Source of the DNA: Dehalococcoidia bacterium
GTDB lineage: Bacteria; Chloroflexota; Dehalococcoidia; Bin125
Assembly: GCA_965211635.1 (NCBI GenBank)
Contig: OZ242948.1
Coordinates: 2,054,938-2,118,937, forward strand
DNA: 64,000 nt
Direction: 5' to 3'
A program made the position numbers and the translations under genes. Numbering within the stretch: position 1 is the stretch's first letter; the number at the start of each line of letters is the position of its first letter. The notes beneath the pieces are model-generated. The model ran no database searches and was not told the origin of the DNA. It saw only the letters and a list, made by a program, of their open reading frames with translations. Positions 6,610 to 64,000 of the stretch are shown here, piece after piece.

Positions 6610-6675
6610 CCGCTCCGCTTCCCCCTCTGGGGGAAGCTGTCCCGGAGGGACCGAAGGGGGGCGCTCCCGCGCCGA
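6610..6675. repeat. GC-rich modular palindromic repeat (family C copy) in the cysE-cysS intergenic spacer
   Basis: Modules CTTCCCCC-TCT-GGGGGAAG, CTGTCCC-GGA-GGGAC, GAAGGGGGGCGC. The same modules recur at 9655, 35705, 53590 and 61421. Confidence 0.6.
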
Positions 6676-9654: not shown

Positions 9655-9775
9655 TCCCCCAGCCCCTGCTCGATTCCCCTCTCCCCCCGCGCAAGCGGGG
9701 GGAGATGTCCCGTAGGGACAGAGGGGGGCACGCCGGCGCCCGCTCGGTCCCCAGCCCCTGCTTCACGCAGGGGCA
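9655..9775. repeat. GC-rich modular palindromic repeat (family C copy)
   Basis: CTCCCCCCGC-GCAA-GCGGGGGGAG (10-bp stem), ATGTCCCGTAGGGACAGAGGGGGG, CCCCTGC-TTCAC-GCAGGGG. Confidence 0.6.
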
Positions 9776-12737: not shown

Positions 12738-12821
12738 GTAGGCGCGACCCTTGTGCTCGCCCGCGTGGTTCGGTGGTTCGCAGAGCGCGGAAACGGGCAA
12801 CCACAAGGGTCGCCCCTACAG
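12738..12821. repeat. MITE-like inverted-repeat element, family B (CTGTAGGGGCGACCCTTGTGGTCGCCC ... GGGCGACCACAAGGGTCGCCCCTACAG)
   Basis: Left arm GTAGGCGCGACCCTTGTGCTCGCCC. Right arm GGGCAACCACAAGGGTCGCCCCTACAG. The right end supplies the TAG stop of the M16 peptidase gene. Confidence 0.65.
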
Positions 12822-24350: not shown

Positions 24351-24787
24351 CTCCCACCTCTCGAACCATGCGTCGAACCATGCGTCGAACCATCCGTCGA
24401 ACCATGCGCTTCGGCGTCGCGCATCAATCCTCGCACCAACCTGGCCAGAGTTGCGTCGAGGGTGCGGAAGTCAGCTTCCGCCGAACCATCTCTCGCCACC
24501 ACAACCACATCCAATCCTGCGCACTTCCCTTCCTGGTTGAGCCGACGCGCTGATTCACGCAAACGCCTTCTGATGCGATTCCTGACCACCGCTCCTCCCA
24601 GCCGGGAACTGATGGCAAAGCCGAACCGGCATGGGCCATCGAGCGAGTCTTCAGCGCGTTGAAGGGCCCTCAACGCCAGCACTCCGCTGGATCGGCGTCG
24701 ACCGTCCTGGAACACTGCGTCAAACTCCGACTTTCGTCGCAGACGCTGATCGGCACGCTTCATGGTCCGCACGGCCTGATCGTTCAC
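24347..24787 (-). CDS. rnpA: Ribonuclease P protein component
   Basis: 146 aa, basic, RRKSEFDAVFQDGRRRSSGVLALRALQ... Positioned between rpmH and yidD. Start may be at MKRADQRLRRK. Confidence 0.8.
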   Translation of the reverse strand: MNDQAVRTMKRADQRLRRKSEFDAVFQDGRRRSSGVLALRALQRAEDSLDGPCRFGFAISSRLGGAVVRNRIRRRLRESARRLNQEGKCAGLDVVVVARDGSAEADFRTLDATLARLVRGLMRDAEAHGSTDGSTHGSTHGSRGGS

Positions 24788-33080: not shown

Positions 33081-33165
33081 CAGATGGATTCCCGCCTGCG
33101 CGGGAATGACGGAGTATGGGATTGCTCACAAGTCTCCCTGCGAGGGGGCGACTTGTCTGTTGAGC
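33081..33165. repeat. Repeat family A copy (GGATTCCCGCCTGCGCGGGAATGACGG hairpin) plus flanking GC hairpin
   Basis: ATTCCCGC-CTGC-GCGGGAAT perfect hairpin followed by TGACGGAG. The identical 27-mer recurs at 53768, 55610, 56284; inverted at 56141; variant at 48315. Confidence 0.65.
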
Positions 33166-35704: not shown

Positions 35705-35852
35705 CTCACTCCCGCTGCCCTCCCCGCCTTCGCGGGGACAGGCTCTTGGGGGGAAGCTCCCGCGTAGCGGGTGAAGGGGGGACCGCCGACATCGGTGGCT
35801 GGCCGGACCCCCCTCTGCCTTCGGCATCTCCCCCCGCGCTGCGGGGGGAGAG
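35705..35852. repeat. GC-rich modular palindromic repeat (family C copy) between the GYD gene and tRNA-Thr(CGU)
   Basis: CCCCGC-CTTC-GCGGGG, CTCTTGGGGGGAAGCTCCCGCGTAGCGGGTGAAGGGGGGACC, CTCCCCCCGC-GCTG-CGGGGGGAG. Confidence 0.6.
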
Positions 35853-37032: not shown

Positions 37033-38451
37033 ATGGCTACCCTTGGCGACATCCAGAACCTGATCCAGGATCAGGGCATCCGTCGCGTTGATCTGTTGGT
37101 GACCGACCTGATCGGCCGCTGGCAGCACTTCAGCATTCCCGCGTCGAAGGTAGACGAGGACCTGGTCAACCGCGGACAGGGCTTCGACGGTTCCTCGCTG
37201 CGCGGCTTCCAGAGCATCGACGAATCGGACATGCTGCTGCGGCCGGACCTTGACTCGGCGCGGCTGGACCCGACCGAGACCGTGCCGACGCTGAAGTTCA
37301 TCTGCGACGTCCATGATCCGGTGACCGGCGACCGTTACAGCCGCGACCCGCGCTACGTGGCGACCAAGGCCGAGCAGCACATGATCGACTCGGGGATTGC
37401 CGATCAGGCCTTTTTCGGTCCGGAGCTTGAGTTCTTCCTGTTCGACCACGTCCAGTTCCAGATGTCGATCAACCAGGCCTTCTACGTCGTCGAGTCGGAC
37501 GAGGCAGACTGGAACAGCGGACGCGACGAGGACGAAAACAACCTCGGCTACAAGATCCCACCCAAGCAGGGCTACTCGCCGACCGCGCCGTTCGACACGC
37601 TGAGTGACATCCGCTGGGAGATGGCCGACGCGATGGAAGCGGTGGGGATGGAGTTGGAGGTGCACCACCACGAAGTCGCGACCGGCGGCCAGGGTGAGAT
37701 CGCGACGCGATTCAACACGCTGCGCAACAAGGCGGACGAGACCCAGTGGTACAAGCACATCGTGCGCAACGTGGCCAAGGCGAACGGCAAGTCGGCCACC
37801 TTCATGCCCAAGCCGCTCTACGGCGACAACGGCACCGGCATGCACTGCCACCAGTCGCTGTGGAAGGACGGCTCGCCGCTCTTCTACGAGTCCGGCCGGT
37901 ACGCCGATCTCTCCGACACCGCCCGACACTACATCGGCGGCCTGCTCAAGCACGGCTCGGCGCTGCTCGCATTCTGCGCGCCGACGACCAACTCCTACAA
38001 GCGCCTGGTGCCCGGCTTCGAGGCGCCGATCTACCTGGCCTTCTCACAGCGCAACCGCTCGGCGGCGGTCCGTATCCCGACCTACGAGACCTCGCCGAAC
38101 AGCAAGCGGATCGAGTTCCGCCCGCCCGACGCCTCGGCCAACACGTACTTGGCGTTCTCGGCGATGCTGATGGCCGGACTGGACGGGATCCGCAAGCGGA
38201 TCGAGCCGGACGACCCCGTCGACACCGACATCTACGAGTTGAGTCCTGAGGAAGCCGCCGGCATCCCTTCGGTCCCGCACTCGCTCGAAGGCTCGCTCCA
38301 GGCCCTCGCCGAAGACCACGACTTCCTGATGGAAGGCGGCGTCTTCACCCAGGATCTGATCGACGAGTACCAGGACTTCAAGCTGACGGAGGCGCGGGAC
38401 GTCTTCATGCACCCGGTCGCGGCGGAGTTCTTCCACTACTACCACATCTAG
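37033..38451 (+). CDS. glnA: Glutamine synthetase, type I
   Basis: 472 aa, MATLGDIQNLIQDQGIRRVDLLVTDLIGRWQHFS...; GS beta-grasp plus catalytic domain (FGPELEFFLFD, MPKPLYGDNGTGMHCHQSLW). Confidence 0.95.
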   Translation: MATLGDIQNLIQDQGIRRVDLLVTDLIGRWQHFSIPASKVDEDLVNRGQGFDGSSLRGFQSIDESDMLLRPDLDSARLDPTETVPTLKFICDVHDPVTGDRYSRDPRYVATKAEQHMIDSGIADQAFFGPELEFFLFDHVQFQMSINQAFYVVESDEADWNSGRDEDENNLGYKIPPKQGYSPTAPFDTLSDIRWEMADAMEAVGMELEVHHHEVATGGQGEIATRFNTLRNKADETQWYKHIVRNVAKANGKSATFMPKPLYGDNGTGMHCHQSLWKDGSPLFYESGRYADLSDTARHYIGGLLKHGSALLAFCAPTTNSYKRLVPGFEAPIYLAFSQRNRSAAVRIPTYETSPNSKRIEFRPPDASANTYLAFSAMLMAGLDGIRKRIEPDDPVDTDIYELSPEEAAGIPSVPHSLEGSLQALAEDHDFLMEGGVFTQDLIDEYQDFKLTEARDVFMHPVAAEFFHYYHI

Positions 38452-38504: not shown

Positions 38505-38572
38505 TTTGTAGGGGCAGCCCTTGTGGCTGCCCTCCCAGTCGGGCGGGCGACCACAAGGGTCGCCCCTACAGC
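38505..38572. repeat. MITE-like inverted-repeat element, family B, between the two glutamine synthetase genes
   Basis: TGTAGGGGCAGCCCTTGTGGCTGCCC ...18 nt... GGGCGACCACAAGGGTCGCCCCTACAG. The terminal CTGTAG/CTACAG are inverted. Confidence 0.7.
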
Positions 38573-38592: not shown

Positions 38593-39942
38593 ATGACCAG
38601 CCTTGATGCAGACCTTAACGCTCCACCGAACGAGCATCAGCACGTCCTGAACGCCTGCCGCGAACATGACGTTCGCTTCGTGCGGCTCTGGTTCACCGAC
38701 CTGCTGGGTCAACTGAAATCCGTGGCGATCACGATTGACGAGCTGCCGGCCGCGCTCGAAAAGGGCGTCGAGTTCGACGGCGCGTCGATCGAGGGATTCG
38801 CCCGACACGACGAGTCGGACATGGTGGCGCTTCCTGATCCGGACACGTTCGTGGTCCTGCCCTGGCGACCTGAGCAGCACCGCGTTGCACGGATGATCTG
38901 CGACATCCACCGGCGCAACGGCGAGCCGTTTGAGGGCGACCCACGCCGCGTGCTGCGCCGCCAGCTCGAGTCGGCGCAACAGCGCGGTTACACCTTCTAT
39001 GTCGCTCCGCAGATCGAGTACTTCTACTTCCGCGCGCCGGACGATCCGTCACCGCTGGACTCGGGCGGATACTTCGATCTCTCCCCGCTCGACACGGCGA
39101 CGGATCTGCGTCGGGAGACTGTGCTAACGCTGGAGGAGATGGGTATCGGGGTTGAGTCTTCGCATCACGAAGCGGCGCCCTCTCAGCACGAGATCGACCT
39201 TCGCTACACCGACGCGTTGACCATGGCCGACCAGGTGATGACCACGCGCCTGGTGGTCAAGGAGGTCGCCATCAAGCAAGGGGTACACGCGACGTTCATG
39301 CCCAAGCCGCTCAACGGCGTCAATGGCTCCGGGATGCACGTGTACCTCTCGCTCTGGGACCATGAGCAGAATCTGTTCTACGAGGAAGGCGGCGGTCTCT
39401 CTGAGACTGCGCGTTCCTTCCTTGCCGGTCTGCTTGCCTACACGCCGCAGTTCACGTTGATCACCAACCAGTGGTCGAACAGTTACAAGCGCCTCGCGCC
39501 GGGGACCGAGGCGCCTGTGTACCTGACCTGGTCACACGCGAATCAGTCGGACCTGGTCCGCATTCCCGAGTACGAGCCGGGCGACGCGGAGTCGAGCCGG
39601 CTGGAGTATCGCGGCGCCGACTCGGCGACGAATCCGTACCTCGCGTTTTCGGTCTTCCTGGCGGCCGGTCTGCGCGGCATTGACGAGGGCTTGGCCCCGC
39701 CGCCGGCGGCCGAGGACAACGTCTTCGAACTGACTTCGACCCAGCGGGCGGCTCGCAGCATTCTCGAGATGCCAACCACCCAAGGTCGGGCGATCGAAGC
39801 CTTTGCGGCATCGGAGTTGATGAAGACGATTCTGGGAGAGTACGTCTGGACGACGGTGTTGGAGAACAAGCGGCTGGAGTGGAACGAGTACCGCTCACAG
39901 GTCACTGACTACGAGCTGCGTCGATACCTGGCCGTGCTGTAA
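38593..39942 (+). CDS. Glutamine synthetase, type I (second, shorter paralogue)
   Basis: Start MTSLDADLNAPPNEHQHVLNACREHDVRFVRLWFTDLLGQLKSV...; MPKPLNGVNGSGMHVYLSLW. The 24 upstream codons in the ORF track (38521..) are a family-B repeat, not coding. Confidence 0.9.
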   Translation: MTSLDADLNAPPNEHQHVLNACREHDVRFVRLWFTDLLGQLKSVAITIDELPAALEKGVEFDGASIEGFARHDESDMVALPDPDTFVVLPWRPEQHRVARMICDIHRRNGEPFEGDPRRVLRRQLESAQQRGYTFYVAPQIEYFYFRAPDDPSPLDSGGYFDLSPLDTATDLRRETVLTLEEMGIGVESSHHEAAPSQHEIDLRYTDALTMADQVMTTRLVVKEVAIKQGVHATFMPKPLNGVNGSGMHVYLSLWDHEQNLFYEEGGGLSETARSFLAGLLAYTPQFTLITNQWSNSYKRLAPGTEAPVYLTWSHANQSDLVRIPEYEPGDAESSRLEYRGADSATNPYLAFSVFLAAGLRGIDEGLAPPPAAEDNVFELTSTQRAARSILEMPTTQGRAIEAFAASELMKTILGEYVWTTVLENKRLEWNEYRSQVTDYELRRYLAVL

Positions 39943-48289: not shown

Positions 48290-48450
48290 AGGGCCACTGA
48301 TGCCGGGAAATCGAGATTCCCGCCTCCGCGGGAATGACGGAGGTGGAGGCGGGAATGACGGAGGTGGAGGCGGGAATGACGGAGGTGGAGGCGGGAATGA
48401 CGGAGGTGGAGGCGGGAATGCGGGAGGTGGGGGCGGGAATGACGGAGATG
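48290..48450. repeat. Family A hairpin followed by ~5.5 tandem copies of a 21-bp unit (GGAGGTGGAGGCGGGAATGAC), in the nuoD-nuoH spacer
   Basis: GATTCCCGCCTCCGCGGGAATGACGG then GGAGGTGGAGGCGGGAATGAC x5 (last copies degenerate). The antisense ORF 48215..48457 translating as PPPPPSF repeats is an artefact of this array. Confidence 0.7.
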
Positions 48451-48456
48451 GTGGCA

Positions 48457-49620
48457 TTAGCGGTCAACCTCGCAGAGCACGATGTCAATCGAGCCGAGGG
48501 CGACGACGGCGTCGGCGAGGTATGTGTTGAGCACCTGCGGCCTGAGTGACGAGAGGTTGTGAAAGCATGGCGAGCGCATCTTCACACGCCAGGGCTTGTC
48601 GGTGCCGTCGGAGACCATGTAGATGCCGTACTCGCCGCGTGGGTTTTCCTGGCGCATGTAGATCTCGCCGGGTTCCGGGCGCAAGCGGGCGGGCATGCGT
48701 TCGGGCATGATCGGGCCTGAGGTCGGCATCTGCTCGAGCGCCTGGCGGAGGATGGTGACGGACTGGCGCATCTCTTCGAGACGCACGAGGTAGCGGTCGT
48801 AGACGTCGCCGCGCTCGCCCACAGGGATTTCCCAGTGGAAGCGGTCGTAAATCGAGTAGGGCTCGTCGACGCGCAGGTCGAAGGGCACGCCGGAGGCGCG
48901 CAGCATGGGGCCGGTGACGCCGTAGCCAATCGCCTCGTCGGCGGTCATTGCGCCGATGTCGCGGCAGCGGGCGACGAAGACCTCGTTGTTGGTCATCAGC
49001 TCGTCGACGTCGGTGATGCCGACTTCGACCTGGTCGAGGACCCAGTGCGAGTCTTCGACAAAGGTCTCGTGCGGCTCCCAGGCGAGTCCGCCGACGCGGA
49101 AGTAGTTGTACATGATGCGGTCGCCGCAGACGGCCTCGAACAGGTCCTGGATACGCTCGCGCTCCTTGAAGGTCCAGGTGAAGGCGGTGCCGAAGTAGCC
49201 GACGTCGGTGCCGAAGGCGCCCATGAACATGAAGTGCGAAAGGATGCGGTTGAGCTCGGCCAGGATCAGTCGGACGTACTCGGCGCGTTCGGGGATCTCG
49301 ATGCCGGCGAGGCGCTCGACGGCGTTGACGTAGACCCACTCGGAGTTGAAGGCGGCGAGGTAGTCGGTGCGGTCCTGGTAGCCGAGCGCGCCTCGGTAGT
49401 CGAGGTTTTCGGAGAGCTTCTCACCGCCGCGGTGCATGTAACCGATGTAAGGGATGGCGTCCTTAACGATCTCGCCGTCGACGGTGAGGACCATGCGGAA
49501 CACGCCGTGGGTCGCGGGGTGCTGGGGCCCGATGTTGATGTTCATGTCGACGGTCTCGAACTCGCGCTCGACGACAACGGGTTCGGTCAGGACTTCGCCT
49601 TCGAAGGTTTGCTGGACCAC
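48457..49620 (-). CDS. nuoD: NADH-quinone oxidoreductase subunit D (49 kDa)
   Basis: 387 aa, NIGPQHPATHGVFRMVLTVDGEIV... Confidence 0.9.
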   Translation of the reverse strand: MVQQTFEGEVLTEPVVVEREFETVDMNINIGPQHPATHGVFRMVLTVDGEIVKDAIPYIGYMHRGGEKLSENLDYRGALGYQDRTDYLAAFNSEWVYVNAVERLAGIEIPERAEYVRLILAELNRILSHFMFMGAFGTDVGYFGTAFTWTFKERERIQDLFEAVCGDRIMYNYFRVGGLAWEPHETFVEDSHWVLDQVEVGITDVDELMTNNEVFVARCRDIGAMTADEAIGYGVTGPMLRASGVPFDLRVDEPYSIYDRFHWEIPVGERGDVYDRYLVRLEEMRQSVTILRQALEQMPTSGPIMPERMPARLRPEPGEIYMRQENPRGEYGIYMVSDGTDKPWRVKMRSPCFHNLSSLRPQVLNTYLADAVVALGSIDIVLCEVDR

Positions 49621-51636: not shown

Positions 51637-51764
51637 GACTACCTGCCGTCACCCGCACTGGAGATGAGCACCAGATTTCGTGGTGCGAAGAGATCGTACC
51701 CGCGCTCAGTGATCAGGGTCAATGTTTGGCCGAACCAAGCGGGTGCCTATGAGGAGATTTCCGC

Positions 51765-51842
51765 CTGTAGGGGCGCCCCTTGTGCGTGCCCGCGGCATAC
51801 ATCGCCGTCCTACAGGCAGGGCGCCCACAAGGGGCGCCGCTA
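51765..51842. repeat. MITE-like inverted-repeat element, family B (divergent copy), between nuoA and the GNAT gene
   Basis: CTGTAGGGGCGCCCCTTGTGCGTGCCC ... TCCTACAGGCAGGGCGCCCACAAGGGGCGCCGCTAC. Overlaps the GNAT stop codon. Confidence 0.6.
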
Positions 51843-52334
51843 CCGGGACCCATCAGGCAGATCGCGTTCGTACTTGAACTCGACCGTGTCGTTGACGTCG
51901 TCTAGCTTGCGGGTGTCGGACTTGACGTAACCAAGGCGCTCGTAGAGGCGGTGGGCGTCTTCGAAGCGGGTGTCGGACCAGAGTTCAATACGCGAGGCGC
52001 CCTGCTCCCGCGCCCAGTCGACCGCGGTTTCGAAGAGGCGGCGACCAAGACCCTTGCCGCGCAGGTGGGCGTCGAGATAGAGGCGGTGCAGCTCGACGGT
52101 CGGTCCATCGATCCGATTTGCGGCGATCGACCCGACGACCTCGCCCGTGTCGTCGCGCATCACCCACATTGCACCGATCGGTGCGCGGTAGGGAAAGGCG
52201 TGCTCCTCGGACAGCAGGTCCCAGAACTCGTCCTCGGGGTCCCAGATGAAGCCGTATTCGTCGAACACGCGGTGGATCAGTTGGATTACTTCCGGACAGG
52301 CGTCGTGGCCGGTCGGTTCAATCGGGAAGGTCAT
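51840..52334 (-). CDS. GNAT family N-acetyltransferase
   Basis: 164 aa, RLYLDAHLRGKGLGRRLFETAVDWAREQGASRIELWSD (acetyl-CoA binding motif A). Stop codon overlaps a family-B repeat. Confidence 0.8.
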   Translation of the reverse strand: MTFPIEPTGHDACPEVIQLIHRVFDEYGFIWDPEDEFWDLLSEEHAFPYRAPIGAMWVMRDDTGEVVGSIAANRIDGPTVELHRLYLDAHLRGKGLGRRLFETAVDWAREQGASRIELWSDTRFEDAHRLYERLGYVKSDTRKLDDVNDTVEFKYERDLPDGSR

Positions 52335-53589: not shown

Positions 53590-53930
53590 CCCTCTCTCTT
53601 CCCTCTCCCCCCGCTCCGCGGGGGGAGCTGCCGAAGGCAGTGAGGGGTCCGAGAAAGTGGCAGTTGGCGGCGCCCCCCTTCAGTCCCCCCGCCGACGGAG
53701 ACCTTAGCGAAACTCGTCGGCCGCCGGGTTCGGTATGTTTTCCTGTTCGCTGACCGAATAGCCGGATGGATTCCCGCCTGCGCGGGAATGACGGAATGTG
53801 CGATTACGCGCAGGTCTCCTTACGCGGGGGCAGGCTCTACGGGACAGCTTCCCTCCAGGGGGAAGCGGGTTTCGCGCAATCGGACACGAACAAGCCCCCG
53901 ACGCTGCGCGTCGGGGGCTTGTGTTGATGC
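53590..53930. repeat. Composite ~340-bp array of family C and family A repeat modules filling the CoA-transferase/groEL intergenic region
   Basis: CTCCCCCCGC-TCCG-CGGGGGGAG, GGCGCCCCCC..., GGATGGATTCCCGCCTGCGCGGGAATGACGG (53768), CTACGGGACAGCTTCCCTCCAGGGGGAAG, CCCCCGACGC-TGC-GCGTCGGGGG. Confidence 0.65.
53880..53920. terminator. GC-rich hairpin, candidate bidirectional intrinsic terminator between the CoA-transferase gene and groEL
   Basis: AAGCCCCCGACGC-TGC-GCGTCGGGGGCTT, a 13-bp perfect stem. T-rich runs on both flanks (minus-strand reading: ...GCUUGUUCGUGU directly after groEL stop). Confidence 0.4.
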
Positions 53931-53948: not shown

Positions 53949-55643
<1,695 letters not shown>

Positions 55644-55940
55644 CTAGACGACCAGCTTGGCGAGGACCTCGCGCTCTTCGAGCACGATCAGGTCCTCGTT
55701 GTCGATCTGGATTTCCTGGCCGGTGTACTTCTTGTAGAGGATGCGGTCGCCCAGCTCGATGTCGAGCGGGACGCGGTTGCCGTCGTCATCGCGCTTGCCC
55801 GGGCCCACGGCGATGACCTCACCCTGCTGCGGCTTTTCCTTGGCCGAGTCGGGGATGACGATGCCAGAGGACAGGACCTGCTCCTGCTGGAGGGGCTTGA
55901 TCACGAGGCGGTCGTTGAGCGGCTTGAGCTCGGTGGCCAT
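55644..55940 (-). CDS. groES: Co-chaperonin GroES
   Basis: Internal start MATELKPLNDRLVIKPLQQEQVLSSGIVIPDSAKEKPQQGEVIAVGPG... (98 aa). The ORF track version (..56003) over-extends through the CIRCE operator. Confidence 0.9.
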   Translation of the reverse strand: MATELKPLNDRLVIKPLQQEQVLSSGIVIPDSAKEKPQQGEVIAVGPGKRDDDGNRVPLDIELGDRILYKKYTGQEIQIDNEDLIVLEEREVLAKLVV

Positions 55941-56139: not shown

Positions 56140-56400
56140 CATTCCCACCGTATCCGTCACTCCATCGCAGGCGGGAATCCATCCGGCACAGCGGTTGCGT
56201 GAGGAACCGGCTGTCGCCTTCCAATCTTAACTGCAGTCGAGCAGGCGCGACAGTCGGCGCTGCGTACGGAGGTCGTCCTGCATGGATTCCCGCCTGCGCG
56301 GGAATGACGGAGGGAGCGCGGGAATGACGGAGGGGGCGCGGGAATGACGGGGAGGGGGGCGCGGGAATGACGGAGGGGGGCGCGGGAGCGATGTGCGGTT
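56140..56400. repeat. Inverted pair of family A units flanking ~95 bp, followed by four tandem ~20-bp units (GCGCGGGAATGACGGAGGGG)
   Basis: Left unit inverted (CGTCATTCCCACCGTATCCGTCACTCCATCGCAGGCGGGAATCCATCC). Right unit direct (GGATTCCCGCCTGCGCGGGAATGACGG at 56284). Then AGGGAGCGCGGGAATGACGG x4. Confidence 0.65.
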
Positions 56401-56514
56401 CATCCACCGAGGCTTCGTGTACAGCCTTGACAACCGCGGCGCGGGACTGATCGATGCGGGGTCGTGGGCTAAGGTGACCGCATACGCCGACGAGCCATGC
56501 GGGGGTGCGCTGCG

Positions 56515-61286: not shown

Positions 61287-64000
61287 GTGACCACCTCTGA
61301 ATTCGACCTGTCCATCCTCAGCGAACTGAGCGGCGCCTACGACGCCTCAGTCGTCGAGGATCCGATCTACGCCTACTGGGAAGACAATGGCTGGTTCCGA
61401 CCGAGCGGACCTTCTCTCTCCGCCTCGGCGGAGCCTGTCCGCGCGGAGGCGGGGAGGGAGGCGACGCAGGTAGAGGGGGATTCGGTCGCGGGATCCAGAG
61501 GGACCCCCTCTGTCCCTACGGGACAGCTCCCCCTGCCAGGGGGAGCGGAGGCTCGGAAGCCGTTCACGGTGATCATGCCGCCGCCCAATGTGACGGGAGT
61601 GTTGCACCTGGGTCATGCAGTGACGCTGACGATCGAGGACGTATTGATCCGTTGGCACAGAATGCTCGGCGAGCCGACGCTCTGGTTGCCGGGGCTGGAC
61701 CATGCGGGAATCGCGACGCAAAGCGTGGTCGAGCAGCAACTCGCGCGCGAGGGGATGACGCGGCACGACCTCGGTCGTGACGCCTTCGAGGAACGTGTCT
61801 GGGATTGGGTCGGCGTGACCCGACCGCGGATCACCGCGCAGGCTCGGCGGATGGGCGCGTCGTGTGACTGGGAGCGGACAGCGTTCACGCTCGACCCGAC
61901 GCCGCGCGCGGCGGTGCGCAAGACGTTCGTCGATCTGTTCAAGGACGGCAAGATCTATCGCGGCGCGCGGATCATCAACTGGGATCCGCAGATGCTGACG
62001 GCGCTCTCGGATGTCGAAGTCGAGTACGAAGAGGAAGACGGGTACCTCTGGCACGTGCGCTATCCATTCGTGGACGAGCGCGGGAACGAACTCGACGACG
62101 GCGTGGTGATTGCCACAACGCGTCCCGAAACGATTCCGGCCGACGTGGCGATCGCGGTGCATCCGGACAGCGAGCGCTGGCAACCGCACCTGGGCCGGCG
62201 CGTGCGACTGCCGCTGCGCGGCTTCAGTCGGCTGATCCCGCTGGTCGCGGACAGCGCGGTCGACCTGGAGTTCGGCACCGGGGCGCTGAAGATCACGCCC
62301 GGTCACGATCAGCTCGACTTCGAGATCGGCGAGCGGCACGGGCTGGAGCCGATCCGCGTCGTTGACTGGGACGGCTCGATGACGGCCGAGGCCGGACTGT
62401 ACGCCGGGATGGATCGGGACGGAGCTCGCACCCTGGTCGCGCAGCATCTCGAAGAGGACGGCTACCTGGTTGAGACCGAGGCGCACGTACACAACGTGGG
62501 GCACTCGCAGCGCTCGGGCGTCGTGGTGGAGCCGCTGGTCTCGAACCAGTGGTTCGTCGACACCGACGATCTGGCGGCCGAGGCGGCGCGGGTCGTGCGC
62601 GAGGGCGAAGTCAAGATTGTGCCCGAGCGCTCGACCTCGGTCTACCTGCAGTGGATGGACAACATCCGTCCCTGGTGCATTTCGCGCCAGCTCTGGTGGG
62701 GACACCGGATTCCTGCCTGGTACTGCACCGTCTGCGACGCCGCGGCGATCATTCGCGGCGACGACGGAGAGATCACGATCGACGAGGACTCGCATCCGAT
62801 AGTCGAGATGGAGGATCCGACAGCCTGCCCGACCTGCGGCAGGTCGGATCTGGTCCAGGATCCGGATGTGCTGGACACGTGGTTCTCGTCCGGCCTGTGG
62901 ACGCATTCGACGCTTGGTTGGCCCGAGACGAGCGACGACCTGTCGCGCTTCTATCCCTCGTCGGTGATGGAGACGGGCTACGACATCCTCTTTTTCTGGG
63001 TCGCGCGAATGATCATGCTGGGCTGCTTCAACATGGGCGAGCCGCCCTTCCACACGGTCTACCTGCATGGTTTGGTCCGCGACGCGCAGGGTCGGAAGAT
63101 GTCGAAGTCGCTGGACAACGTGGTCGATCCGCTGGAGAAGGCGGACCAGTACGGGATGGACGCGCTGCGCTTCACGCTTGCGACCGGCTCGACGCCGGGC
63201 AACGACATGCGCCTCACGGATGAGCGGCTTGAGGGGTCGCGCAACTTCGCCAACAAGCTCTGGAACGGGGCGAGGTTTGTCCTCGGCGAGATTGCGAATG
63301 CGGCGGATGTCGCCCAGGCTTCGTCCGGCGTAGGGGCAACCCTTGTGGTTGCCCGTCCGGACGAAGATGCGACCAACGATACGAACGGGCGACCACAAGG
63401 GTCGCCCCTACAGGAGCCGTTGGAGGACCGTTGGATTCTGTCGCGACTGCAGGCAGTAACGGACTCGGTGGATGAGTTGCTGCGCCAGTTCCAACTCGGC
63501 GAGGCGGGGCGGCAGATCCAGGACTTTCTCTGGGGCGAGTTCTTTGACTGGTACGTCGAGGCGAGCAAGGTGAGGCTGCGCAACGGGGATGCGTCGCCGC
63601 TGCCCGTGTTGGTCACGGTGCTGGACGGTGGATTGCGGCTGCTGCATCCGTGGATGCCGTTCGTGACCGAGGCGATCTGGCAACAGCTTCGGCCGTACGT
63701 ATCTGGGGAAGAGACGACGGCGTTGATCGGAGCTCGCTATCCGCAGCCCGGTGACCGGGAGAGGGACCTTGAGGCGGAAGCGGCCTTTAGCGCGGTGCAG
63801 GAGATCGTCACGGCCGTGCGCCAGGTGCGCGCCGATTACCGCGTCCAGGCCGGACAGTGGGCGGAGGCGTACGTCCTTCCGCGGATTGAGGTCGCCAATG
63901 CGGTCAGCGCCTCGGCGCCGATCGTTGAGGTCCTCTCGAGAGCGCGCCCGCTGACCATCGTCTCGAATCGTGAAGAGGCGCCGACGGAGCAGATTGCGTC
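61287..64000 (+). CDS. valS: Valine--tRNA ligase (5' ~900 codons; runs off window end) carrying two in-frame repeat-element insertions
   Basis: Own translation from GTG ~61287 (GGAG RBS 8 nt upstream): TTSEFDLSILSELSGAYDASVVEDPIYAYWEDNGWFRPS-[insert]-KPFTVIMPPPNVTGVLHLGHAVTLT... (HIGH), later GRKMSKSLDNVVDP (KMSKS) ~63090. Not in the ORF track because it has no stop inside the window. Confidence 0.9.
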   Translation, partial: MTTSEFDLSILSELSGAYDASVVEDPIYAYWEDNGWFRPSGPSLSASAEPVRAEAGREATQVEGDSVAGSRGTPSVPTGQLPLPGGAEARKPFTVIMPPPNVTGVLHLGHAVTLTIEDVLIRWHRMLGEPTLWLPGLDHAGIATQSVVEQQLAREGMTRHDLGRDAFEERVWDWVGVTRPRITAQARRMGASCDWERTAFTLDPTPRAAVRKTFVDLFKDGKIYRGARIINWDPQMLTALSDVEVEYEEEDGYLWHVRYPFVDERGNELDDGVVIATTRPETIPADVAIAVHPDSERWQPHLGRRVRLPLRGFSRLIPLVADSAVDLEFGTGALKITPGHDQLDFEIGERHGLEPIRVVDWDGSMTAEAGLYAGMDRDGARTLVAQHLEEDGYLVETEAHVHNVGHSQRSGVVVEPLVSNQWFVDTDDLAAEAARVVREGEVKIVPERSTSVYLQWMDNIRPWCISRQLWWGHRIPAWYCTVCDAAAIIRGDDGEITIDEDSHPIVEMEDPTACPTCGRSDLVQDPDVLDTWFSSGLWTHSTLGWPETSDDLSRFYPSSVMETGYDILFFWVARMIMLGCFNMGEPPFHTVYLHGLVRDAQGRKMSKSLDNVVDPLEKADQYGMDALRFTLATGSTPGNDMRLTDERLEGSRNFANKLWNGARFVLGEIANAADVAQASSGVGATLVVARPDEDATNDTNGRPQGSPLQEPLEDRWILSRLQAVTDSVDELLRQFQLGEAGRQIQDFLWGEFFDWYVEASKVRLRNGDASPLPVLVTVLDGGLRLLHPWMPFVTEAIWQQLRPYVSGEETTALIGARYPQPGDRERDLEAEAAFSAVQEIVTAVRQVRADYRVQAGQWAEAYVLPRIEVANAVSASAPIVEVLSRARPLTIVSNREEAPTEQIA
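61421..61556. repeat. Family C modular repeat lying in-frame inside the valS coding sequence
   Basis: GAGCCTGTCCGCGCGGAGGCGGGGAGGGAGG..., GGACCCCCTCTGTCCCTACGGGACAGCTCCCCCTGCCAGGGGGAGCGG; same modules as the intergenic copies. Confidence 0.65.
63328..63414. repeat. Family B inverted-repeat element lying in-frame inside valS
   Basis: GTAGGGGCAACCCTTGTGGTTGCCC ...32 nt... GGGCGACCACAAGGGTCGCCCCTACAG; translated as ...GVGATLVVARPDEDATNDTNGRPQGSPLQ... Confidence 0.7.

Follow-up and report, generated by a model that had tools for sequence, protein, structure and literature searches.

The stretch of DNA analysed here, referred to as the window, comprises 64,000 nt of contig OZ242948.1 of a Dehalococcoidia bacterium (Chloroflexota; assembly GCA_965211635.1, positions 2,054,938 to 2,118,937 of the forward strand). 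The window ends within valS, the gene for valine–tRNA ligase (ValRS), and this gene carries a short palindromic element in frame. An earlier note on this DNA had placed the element at 63328–63414, with a left arm, a 32-nt spacer and a right arm. We recovered it with all three parts and slightly narrower limits (63330–63413), and each of the two arms is a repetitive extragenic palindromic (REP) unit. The gene and the parts of the insertion are as follows.

61287..64000, + strand: valS (valine–tRNA ligase), probably starting with GTG at 61287 and running past the end of the window
63330..63413, + strand: complete in-frame insertion of 84 nt, equal to 28 codons (25 + 32 + 25 nt plus AG)
63330..63354, + strand: left REP unit GTAGGGGCAACCCTTGTGGTTGCCC, with a GTAG foot, an 8-bp stem GGGCAACC/GGTTGCCC and a CTTGT loop
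63355..63386, + strand: spacer of 32 nt, translated as RPDEDATNDTN
63387..63411, − strand: right REP unit GTAGGGGCGACCCTTGTGGTCGCCC (minus-strand reading), 0 mismatches

The valS reading frame is stop-free across the element (...SSG VGATLVVARPDEDATNDTNGRPQGSPLQ EPLEDRW...). The left unit is translated as VGATLVVA and the right unit, on the plus strand, as GRPQGSPL followed by Q; the AG that closes the element is the CT located 5′ of the minus-strand GTAG. The stem of each 25-nt unit starts with GGG, and the arms show 90% complementarity when extended to 30 nt. Each unit folds alone into a DNA hairpin (−9.5 kcal/mol, z = −4.2 for the left unit and −10.5 kcal/mol, z = −5.4 for the right unit), and the whole doublet forms one long hairpin both as DNA (−31 kcal/mol, z = −7.2) and as RNA (−58.6 kcal/mol, z = −7.6). 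Scanning the surroundings of the element for terminators and promoters gave no matches, and the lack of a T-run rules it out as an intrinsic terminator inside valS. Against Rfam 15, the 64-kb window as a whole yielded three tRNAs only and no family at the repeats.

Residues of ValRS are numbered here according to the 902-aa translation from 61293. Both the HIGH (LHLGHA) and the KMSKS motifs are intact, and the C-terminal coiled coil is missing, since valS runs off the end of the window. The insert represents residues 680–707 and is located between Pfam domains tRNA-synt_1 (88–641) and Anticodon_1 (712–859), that is, between the catalytic and anticodon-binding domains as had been proposed. The equivalent loop has 13 residues in the ValRS of T. 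thermophilus (1GAX) compared with 44 in the window protein. In an AlphaFold2 model built on 76 sequences (mean predicted local distance difference test score, pLDDT, of 85.6) the insert is a coil (residues 679–704, block pLDDT 51–62) between helices 643–678 and 710–731, which argues that the element encodes a flexible surface loop of ValRS. The sole other poorly modelled segment is residues 42–85, an N-terminal insertion that is described below.

The best ValRS homologues, which are 86% identical proteins from Chloroflexota metagenome-assembled genomes (MAGs), lack the insert, and the element is absent from 116 of 120 homologues (P numbers below). The synteny secA–hypothetical–valS is common to the window and the orthologous loci (L numbers below). 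The closest syntenic locus, L123, aligns with the window at 84–94% nucleotide identity, and the alignment is interrupted at exactly two places in valS, 61425–61558 and 63292–63417. Between ANKLWNGARFVLGE and LEDRWILSRL, distant orthologues have a short, plain stretch, but the sequence is hypervariable in the closest group (~77–86% identity), where some close orthologues (P0022, P0026 and P0031) also have short, plain loops. Removal of the 28 codons leaves flanks of 15 + 2 residues, which fit the ~18-residue loop of the element-free P0031.

These comparisons support the insertion of the element, in frame, into an essential gene whose orthologues are without it. The expectation that ~30 residues at this place would be unique to the genome does not hold, since P0004, P0009 and P0010 carry an element of the same family in this loop. 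Short repeats can mislead assemblers, and a repeat-induced chimeric join could have placed the element in valS. We regard such an artefact as extremely improbable, as both flanks are collinear with the orthologues, the insert consists of exactly 28 stop-free codons, and independent assemblies from other samples hold the same family in the same loop.

Three more doublets of the same family are found in the window, at or within a few nucleotides of the intergenic positions claimed before (12738, 38505 and 51765).

12738..12819, no strand assigned: intergenic doublet, spacer 32 nt, located past the stop codon of the + strand open reading frame (ORF) upstream of it
38508..38569, no strand assigned: intergenic doublet, spacer 12 nt, separating two glnA-like genes and preceding ATG 38593
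51767..51843, no strand assigned: intergenic doublet, spacer 27 nt, arms more degenerate

None of the three falls within a credible gene, and the 64-kb window holds four doublets of the family, three of them intergenic. The eight units compare with 0.00 expected from 100 dinucleotide-preserving shuffles, and all eight are paired with the GTAG feet outward and spacers of 12–32 nt. As DNA, the four doublets fold with −26.6 to −32.1 kcal/mol (z −3.7 to −7.3), and the arms of the intergenic copies are as well conserved as those in valS. The L123 alignment is also interrupted at 51729–51859, where the site of the 51767 doublet is empty, and this therefore supports the mobility of the family. The longest-ORF call for glnA2 does run into the repeat, as had been pointed out: it starts at TTG 38521 inside the doublet and translates the peptide GRPQGSPLQ. 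The true glnA2 start is likely to be the in-frame ATG at 38593, beyond the repeat. The two adjacent glnA-like genes (37033–38451 and 38593–39942) share a 69-nt stretch that is 80% identical.

The valS element is a GTAG-tagged REP doublet of the type known as REPINs (REP doublets forming hairpins) or BIMEs (bacterial interspersed mosaic elements). GTAG is found at the start of all eight window units, and all well-preserved units have the form GTAG-GGG....CCC, which gives three G-C pairs at the foot of the stem. The enrichment of GTAG as a tag is only modest; a hairpin scan with other tetranucleotides gave 0–8 matches, and GATG also reached 8, from ~2.5 times as many tag occurrences. Differences between stems are compensated within the unit and not across the doublet (GCAACC/GGTTGC, GCAGCC/GGCTGC and GCGACC/GGTCGC). 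We scanned 185,579 species-representative genomes with GTAGGGGCRRCCCTTGTGGYYGCCC, in which the RR and YY positions were not forced to pair, and found at least 120 loci (L001–L120). The variable stem positions were fully complementary in 149 of the 156 exact matches listed, compared with 49 expected from the marginals. The left arm of the window element differs from those of two orthologous valS loci, L121 and L122, by one compensated pair, and both changes are non-synonymous (T to A and V to A). A compensated change that alters the protein on both sides shows that the hairpin is maintained, so the constraint is on the nucleic acid and not on the peptide.

The element had been described as MITE-like (miniature inverted-repeat transposable element). 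This fits insofar as it is a dispersed, non-coding insertion with inverted repeats, but the label itself does not stand. A classical MITE would be a deletion derivative of an insertion sequence (IS) with a DDE transposase, mobilised in trans via its terminal inverted repeats. The inverted termini, the short length (82–87 nt) and the dispersed, non-coding copies could be read in this way, and so could the IS110-family transposase gene that lies just downstream of valS in L122. However, no direct repeats or target-site duplications (TSDs) were found flanking the four window copies, each arm folds by itself into a GTAG-footed hairpin whose compensated changes stay inside the arm, and single units and tandem arrays of units exist besides doublets. 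The units are furthermore embedded in genes for Y1 transposases of the REP-associated tyrosine transposase (RAYT) type and not in IS ends, and no IS with these ends was seen. The self-folding GTAG-footed arms, the compensated stems and the missing TSDs therefore speak for a REP doublet, and a classical MITE is very improbable.

Across the fetched loci, doublets with the feet outside outnumber those with the feet inside (55 vs 13). No fixed dinucleotide was found 5′ of GTAG, only a pyrimidine-rich preference (CC, CT, TT and TC in 139 of 245). The CGTC-tagged Rickettsia palindromic elements (RPEs) RPE-4 and RPE-6 were considered and ruled out, as the tag here is GTAG; the likeness lies only in the in-frame insertion behaviour. 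The IS110-family gene in L122 (13276–14223; DEDD_Tnp_IS110 and Transposase_20) directly follows valS, and this is the one orthologous locus with such a gene beside valS. IS110/IS1111 elements are known to target REPs.

The same family is present in the same ValRS loop in P0004/P0009 (locus L121) and in P0010 (L122). These copies are also 84 nt long, and their reading frame and right arm are identical to those of the window valS copy. The arms are perfectly kept in the three holder lineages while the surrounding loop sequence varies. The insertion points are found 0, 2 and 10 codons before LEDRW, and the 32-nt spacers are identical at 11 positions between the window and L121 and at 19 between L121 and L122. 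The holders were never monophyletic in neighbour-joining trees (0 of 100 bootstraps, 805 ungapped columns); the window protein grouped with P0001–P0007 (98), P0004/P0009 with P0011 (100), and P0010 with the ‘SPLQGE’ set (99). The non-holders within these clades have other palindromes at the same place. Non-sister holders with differing insertion points and spacers point to parallel events, with at least two independent insertions of the family in this loop and probably three. The loop is thus either a place of repeated landing or one in which insertions are tolerated.

Alternatively, a single ancient insertion in the ancestor of the clade could have been lost, or overwritten by other palindromes, in most descendants and have persisted only in the lineages of the window, P0004/P0009 and P0010. 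This might explain the common size, frame and right arm of the three lineages, the 19 of 32 identical spacer positions between L121 and L122, and the finding that ~16–23 kb around each of these two loci contains no family member besides the valS copy. On the other hand, the three insertion points differ, the spacer identity between the window and L121 is at random level compared with ~83–86% for the flanking gene, and the well-supported non-holder clades between the holders would call for numerous separate losses or replacements. Compared with parallel insertions this scenario is less likely, and we regard it as unlikely overall.

Co-option is another explanation, in which the hairpin of the valS mRNA or the 28-residue loop would be functional, for example in translational pausing, in valS regulation or as a lineage-specific interaction surface. 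Such a function could account for the very stable RNA hairpin within an essential ORF, for the perfectly kept arms amid a variable loop, and for some palindrome being present in both ValRS loops of many orthologues with ~77–86% identity. Yet the occupying element differs between sister lineages, the close orthologues P0022, P0026 and P0031 manage with plain short loops, and the peptide is modelled as a low-confidence coil. Conservation of the arms is expected for any REP of the family, as the intergenic copies are equally conserved. We find co-option quite improbable.

Two different repeat families in frame in one essential gene had seemed striking. The other in-frame insertion in valS, at 61404–61560 (residues ~42–85), adds ~43 residues between YWEDNGWFRP and KPFTVIMPPPNVTG. 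At least three palindromes make it up, and its pLDDT is below 50.

61413–61430/61442–61459: palindrome in the N-terminal valS insertion
61472–61479/61504–61511: palindrome in the N-terminal valS insertion, with GTAG/CTAC feet
61526–61546: palindrome in the N-terminal valS insertion, GCTCCCCCTG/CAGGGGGAGC

In its window form this insertion is absent from all 120 ValRS homologues, and pieces of it recur at 9698–9727, 35718–35745 and 6630–6651. The N-terminal loop likewise collects palindromes in orthologues. Other palindromes in the orthologue ValRS loops are C5–6/G5–6 hairpins such as CTCCCCCTTGCAGGGGGAG plus TGCCGAAGGCGGAGGGGG; the C5-loop-G5 hairpins are read as SPLQGEVPKAEG or PLSRSATAPPEGE and are in tandem in P0034. 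Palindromes of this kind occur in the valS loops of L123, L124 and L125 and in P0034, P0038–P0042 and P0058, with up to 3–4 tandem copies and sometimes in both loops of one ValRS. The presence of two families in one gene is less striking than it first appeared, as both loops contain palindromes in many of the ~77–86% identical orthologues, and in-frame REP dimers in genes, tRNA synthetases included, are already described in a published survey (Di Nocera, De Gregorio and Rocco, 2013, BMC Genomics 14:522; PMC3733652).

In other genomes (L055, L116 and L044), genes for Y1 transposases carry units of the family as well, in frame and immediately behind the HuH motif.

L055 (a Chloroflexota chromosome), 103–747, − strand: 214-aa ORF with a doublet in frame directly after PNHIHGII
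L055, 1832–2419, − strand: 195-aa ORF with the ‘double-foot’ palindrome GTAGGGGCGGTTCGCGAACCGCCCCTAC after the HuH motif and another just downstream of the stop
L116, 1–348, and L044, 5717–6137: partial or frameshifted ORFs with units arranged as in the L055 genes

These proteins match the NCBIfam model ‘REP-associated tyrosine transposase’ (E 1e-11 to 1e-16) as well as Pfam Y1_Tnp. The first of the L055 ORFs has QGFHQH after WQ in place of RNYYEH. REP-derived peptides (VGAPLVGA...RATTRVAPT) are located between the HuH and WQ motifs in 99 of the 116 RAYT homologues with recognisable motifs among the matches listed (P0122–P0241), and some of these have 2–7 tandem REP copies (P0188 and P0191). 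RATTRVAPT is the third-frame reading of the right arm in the window.

RAYTs of TnpA_REP subclass 2.4 (RAYT group 4) have the motifs NH[IFV]H, WQ and YIxNNP, and their REPs are long, have three G-C pairs in a row at the stem base, and include double-foot REPs (Quentin, 2018; PMC6006769). Insertion of REPs in frame within tnpA_REP itself is a trait of this subclass (PMC6006769). The RAYT-like genes of the other genomes fit this description, and the valS family probably belongs to the REP type associated with TnpA_REP subclass 2.4 / RAYT group 4. The near-universal in-frame REPs in the RAYT homologues are striking, though known for subclass 2.4 (PMC6006769).

The 25-nt unit, with four degenerate positions, is phylogenetically widespread. 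Among the matches listed are genomes from Chloroflexota, Acidobacteriota, Latescibacterota, Planctomycetota, Deinococcales and Firmicutes, from Alpha-, Gamma- and ‘Delta’-proteobacteria, and from Thermodesulfobacteriota, Bacteroidota, Kapabacteria and Zixibacteria, including isolates (Flavonifractor plautii ATCC 29863) and closed chromosomes. The identity of the unit across phyla suggests a REP–RAYT pair that may be very slowly evolving or spreading horizontally. Besides the RAYT genes, the credible in-frame genic hosts among the long ORFs checked were only an AcrB-family transporter and a Ser/Thr protein kinase, both from other phyla, and a TilS-deaminase linker.

L042, 3451–3631: AcrB-family transporter of a Symbiothrix MAG, four units in frame, peptide RGNPCGCPV
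L120, 2044–2108: catalytic domain of a Ser/Thr protein kinase, in frame, VGATLVVA/RAGTRPAPT
L071, 5767–5839: TilS-deaminase linker of a Deinococcales MAG, in frame
RAYT genes: REP peptides VGAPLVGA/RATTRVAPT

Most other long ORFs spanning REP units were rejected as high-GC artefacts or because the REP part precedes the true start. Of the six frames in which a unit can be read, five are open and one is closed by the TAG of GTAG. The spacer is 32 nt in each of the three valS copies, and 32, 12 and 27 nt in the intergenic window copies. No frame is preferred among the genic copies, which are subject only to a filter against stops and frameshifts. A search with a 56-aa concatenation of the REPIN peptide against a database of 5.8 billion proteins gave 26 candidates and one match at E = 2.8, and such a search is ill-suited to short repeat-derived peptides. 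Head-to-tail arrays of units with 45-nt and 34-nt periods were also seen (L056, 6112–6316; L083, 325–621; L005, 7253 region), and partial-unit stutters (...GCCCgatccgaCCCTTGTGGTCGCCC...) look like products of slippage or repeated nicking.

Considering all of this, we find it quite probable that a REP doublet of the RAYT group 4 type inserted into a tolerated ValRS loop and is translated there as a passenger. A RAYT encoded elsewhere in the genome would nick the single-stranded REP hairpins beside the GTAG foot and then copy or move the doublet, and one such event would have placed the 84-nt copy in the loop between the catalytic body and the helical anticodon-binding domain of ValRS. Since valS is essential, only stop-free insertions of a multiple of 3 nt would survive, and a doublet with a 32-nt spacer plus the CT/AG dinucleotide makes exactly 28 codons. 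The 28-residue peptide would then be a passenger in a tolerated, flexible surface loop, with the DNA/RNA hairpin being what is conserved. Both ValRS loops repeatedly collect palindromes, and they might simply be permissive sites, or resident palindromes might attract new ones.

Several points weigh against this reading. No Y1 or RAYT gene was found by tblastn in the 64-kb window or in the orthologous loci, and mobilisation by a RAYT in the Dehalococcoidia source organism is therefore something that we infer. The RAYT-like proteins of the other genomes score 44–61 bits compared with the NCBIfam equivalog cut-off of 80, and phmmer with the L055 protein against solved structures gave no match at E ≤ 0.01. 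The spacers of the four window doublets differ in sequence and give no sign of very recent copying, and it is from the frame and stop-codon logic that we infer translation of the 28 codons. Finally, the lone valS copies in L121 and L122 mentioned above are odd for random landing and hint at site preference or inheritance.

A stronger version of the site preference would make both ValRS loops genuine hot spots of recombination or insertion, where a resident palindrome, extruded as a hairpin on single-stranded DNA, recruits the next REP/RAYT-type insertion. We consider this possible but doubtful. If true, different palindromic families would replace each other over time at one position of an essential gene, and valS would offer a natural readout of how RAYT-like Y1 transposases choose their targets. 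To our knowledge, no insertion mechanism has yet been demonstrated for these enzymes.

Other repeats are present in the window as well. A third repeat family, ATTCCCGC-CTGC-GCGGGAAT followed by GACG, reads on the other strand as a CGTC-tagged palindrome and resembles the CGTC REPs of Di Nocera.

33084–33120: third repeat family
48307–48474: third repeat family
53766–53802: third repeat family
55608–55644: third repeat family
56282–56402: third repeat family

Tandem arrays with a period of 20 or 21 nt (GCGGGAATGACGGAGGTGGAG) follow the third-family repeat at 48307–48474 and 56298–56402, and a 12-nt tandem repeat, TCGAACCATGCG x4, is found at 24361–24408.

GTAG- and CGTC-tagged REPs have been catalogued before, Chloroflexi included, and over half of the intragenic REPs are dimers or groups encoding 20–30 residues, with the glycyl- and isoleucyl-tRNA synthetase genes (glyS and ileS) among the hosts (Di Nocera, 2013; PMC3733652). 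The authors argue there that only tolerated insertions survive, and the same conclusion has been reached for insertions in tnpA_REP itself (Quentin, 2018; PMC6006769). The valS family shares with the GTAG REPs the GTAG foot, the short G+C-rich stem-loop, the inverted dimers with spacers of 20–100 nt and, within the window, a mostly intergenic location with a minority in frame in known genes (PMC3733652). An in-frame REP doublet in a tRNA synthetase thus adds one more case to a phenomenon already described. In contrast, valS is not among the hosts found in the supplementary list, and recurrent independent occupation of one loop was not found in the available passages (PMC3733652). The Chloroflexi family GTAG-23 is described as clustered in blocks, unlike the dispersed doublets seen here (PMC3733652). 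More unusual is that, within one clade, several palindromic families have repeatedly and independently used the same two loops of an essential enzyme.

With REPIN–RAYT systems the element shares the inverted REP doublet that forms a long hairpin (Bertels and Rainey, 2011; Quentin, 2018; PMC6006769), and with the subclass 2.4 systems the three G-C pairs at the stem foot, the RAYT motifs and a patchy distribution across many phyla (PMC6006769). REPIN populations in Pseudomonas are near-identical, whereas the present copies have unrelated spacers. RPEs (Ogata et al., 2000, as cited in PMC3733652) are likewise in-frame palindromes in many genes, some of them essential, and are translated at surface-exposed, tolerated positions like the valS element. 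They are longer or of the CGTC-tagged class (PMC3733652), in contrast to the GTAG-tagged valS element; their host is an AT-rich obligate intracellular alphaproteobacterium, and their sequences are unrelated. MITEs such as Correia/NEMIS and RUP are also small and non-autonomous with inverted termini and are occasionally in frame, but their TSDs and DDE-IS origin were not found for the valS element.

No new kind of element or mechanism is revealed by these results. They give a well-controlled example of a REP doublet in an essential enzyme, with syntenic orthologues that have and lack the element and with parallel events, and a REP family that is near-identical across >10 phyla and is tied to subclass 2.4 RAYTs whose own coding sequences carry it. 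Alignments of universal marker genes, valS among them, become inflated and broken up by insertions of this kind, which also seed spurious ORF extensions, as for the glnA2 start. Such insertions could also serve as lineage markers in Chloroflexota MAGs.

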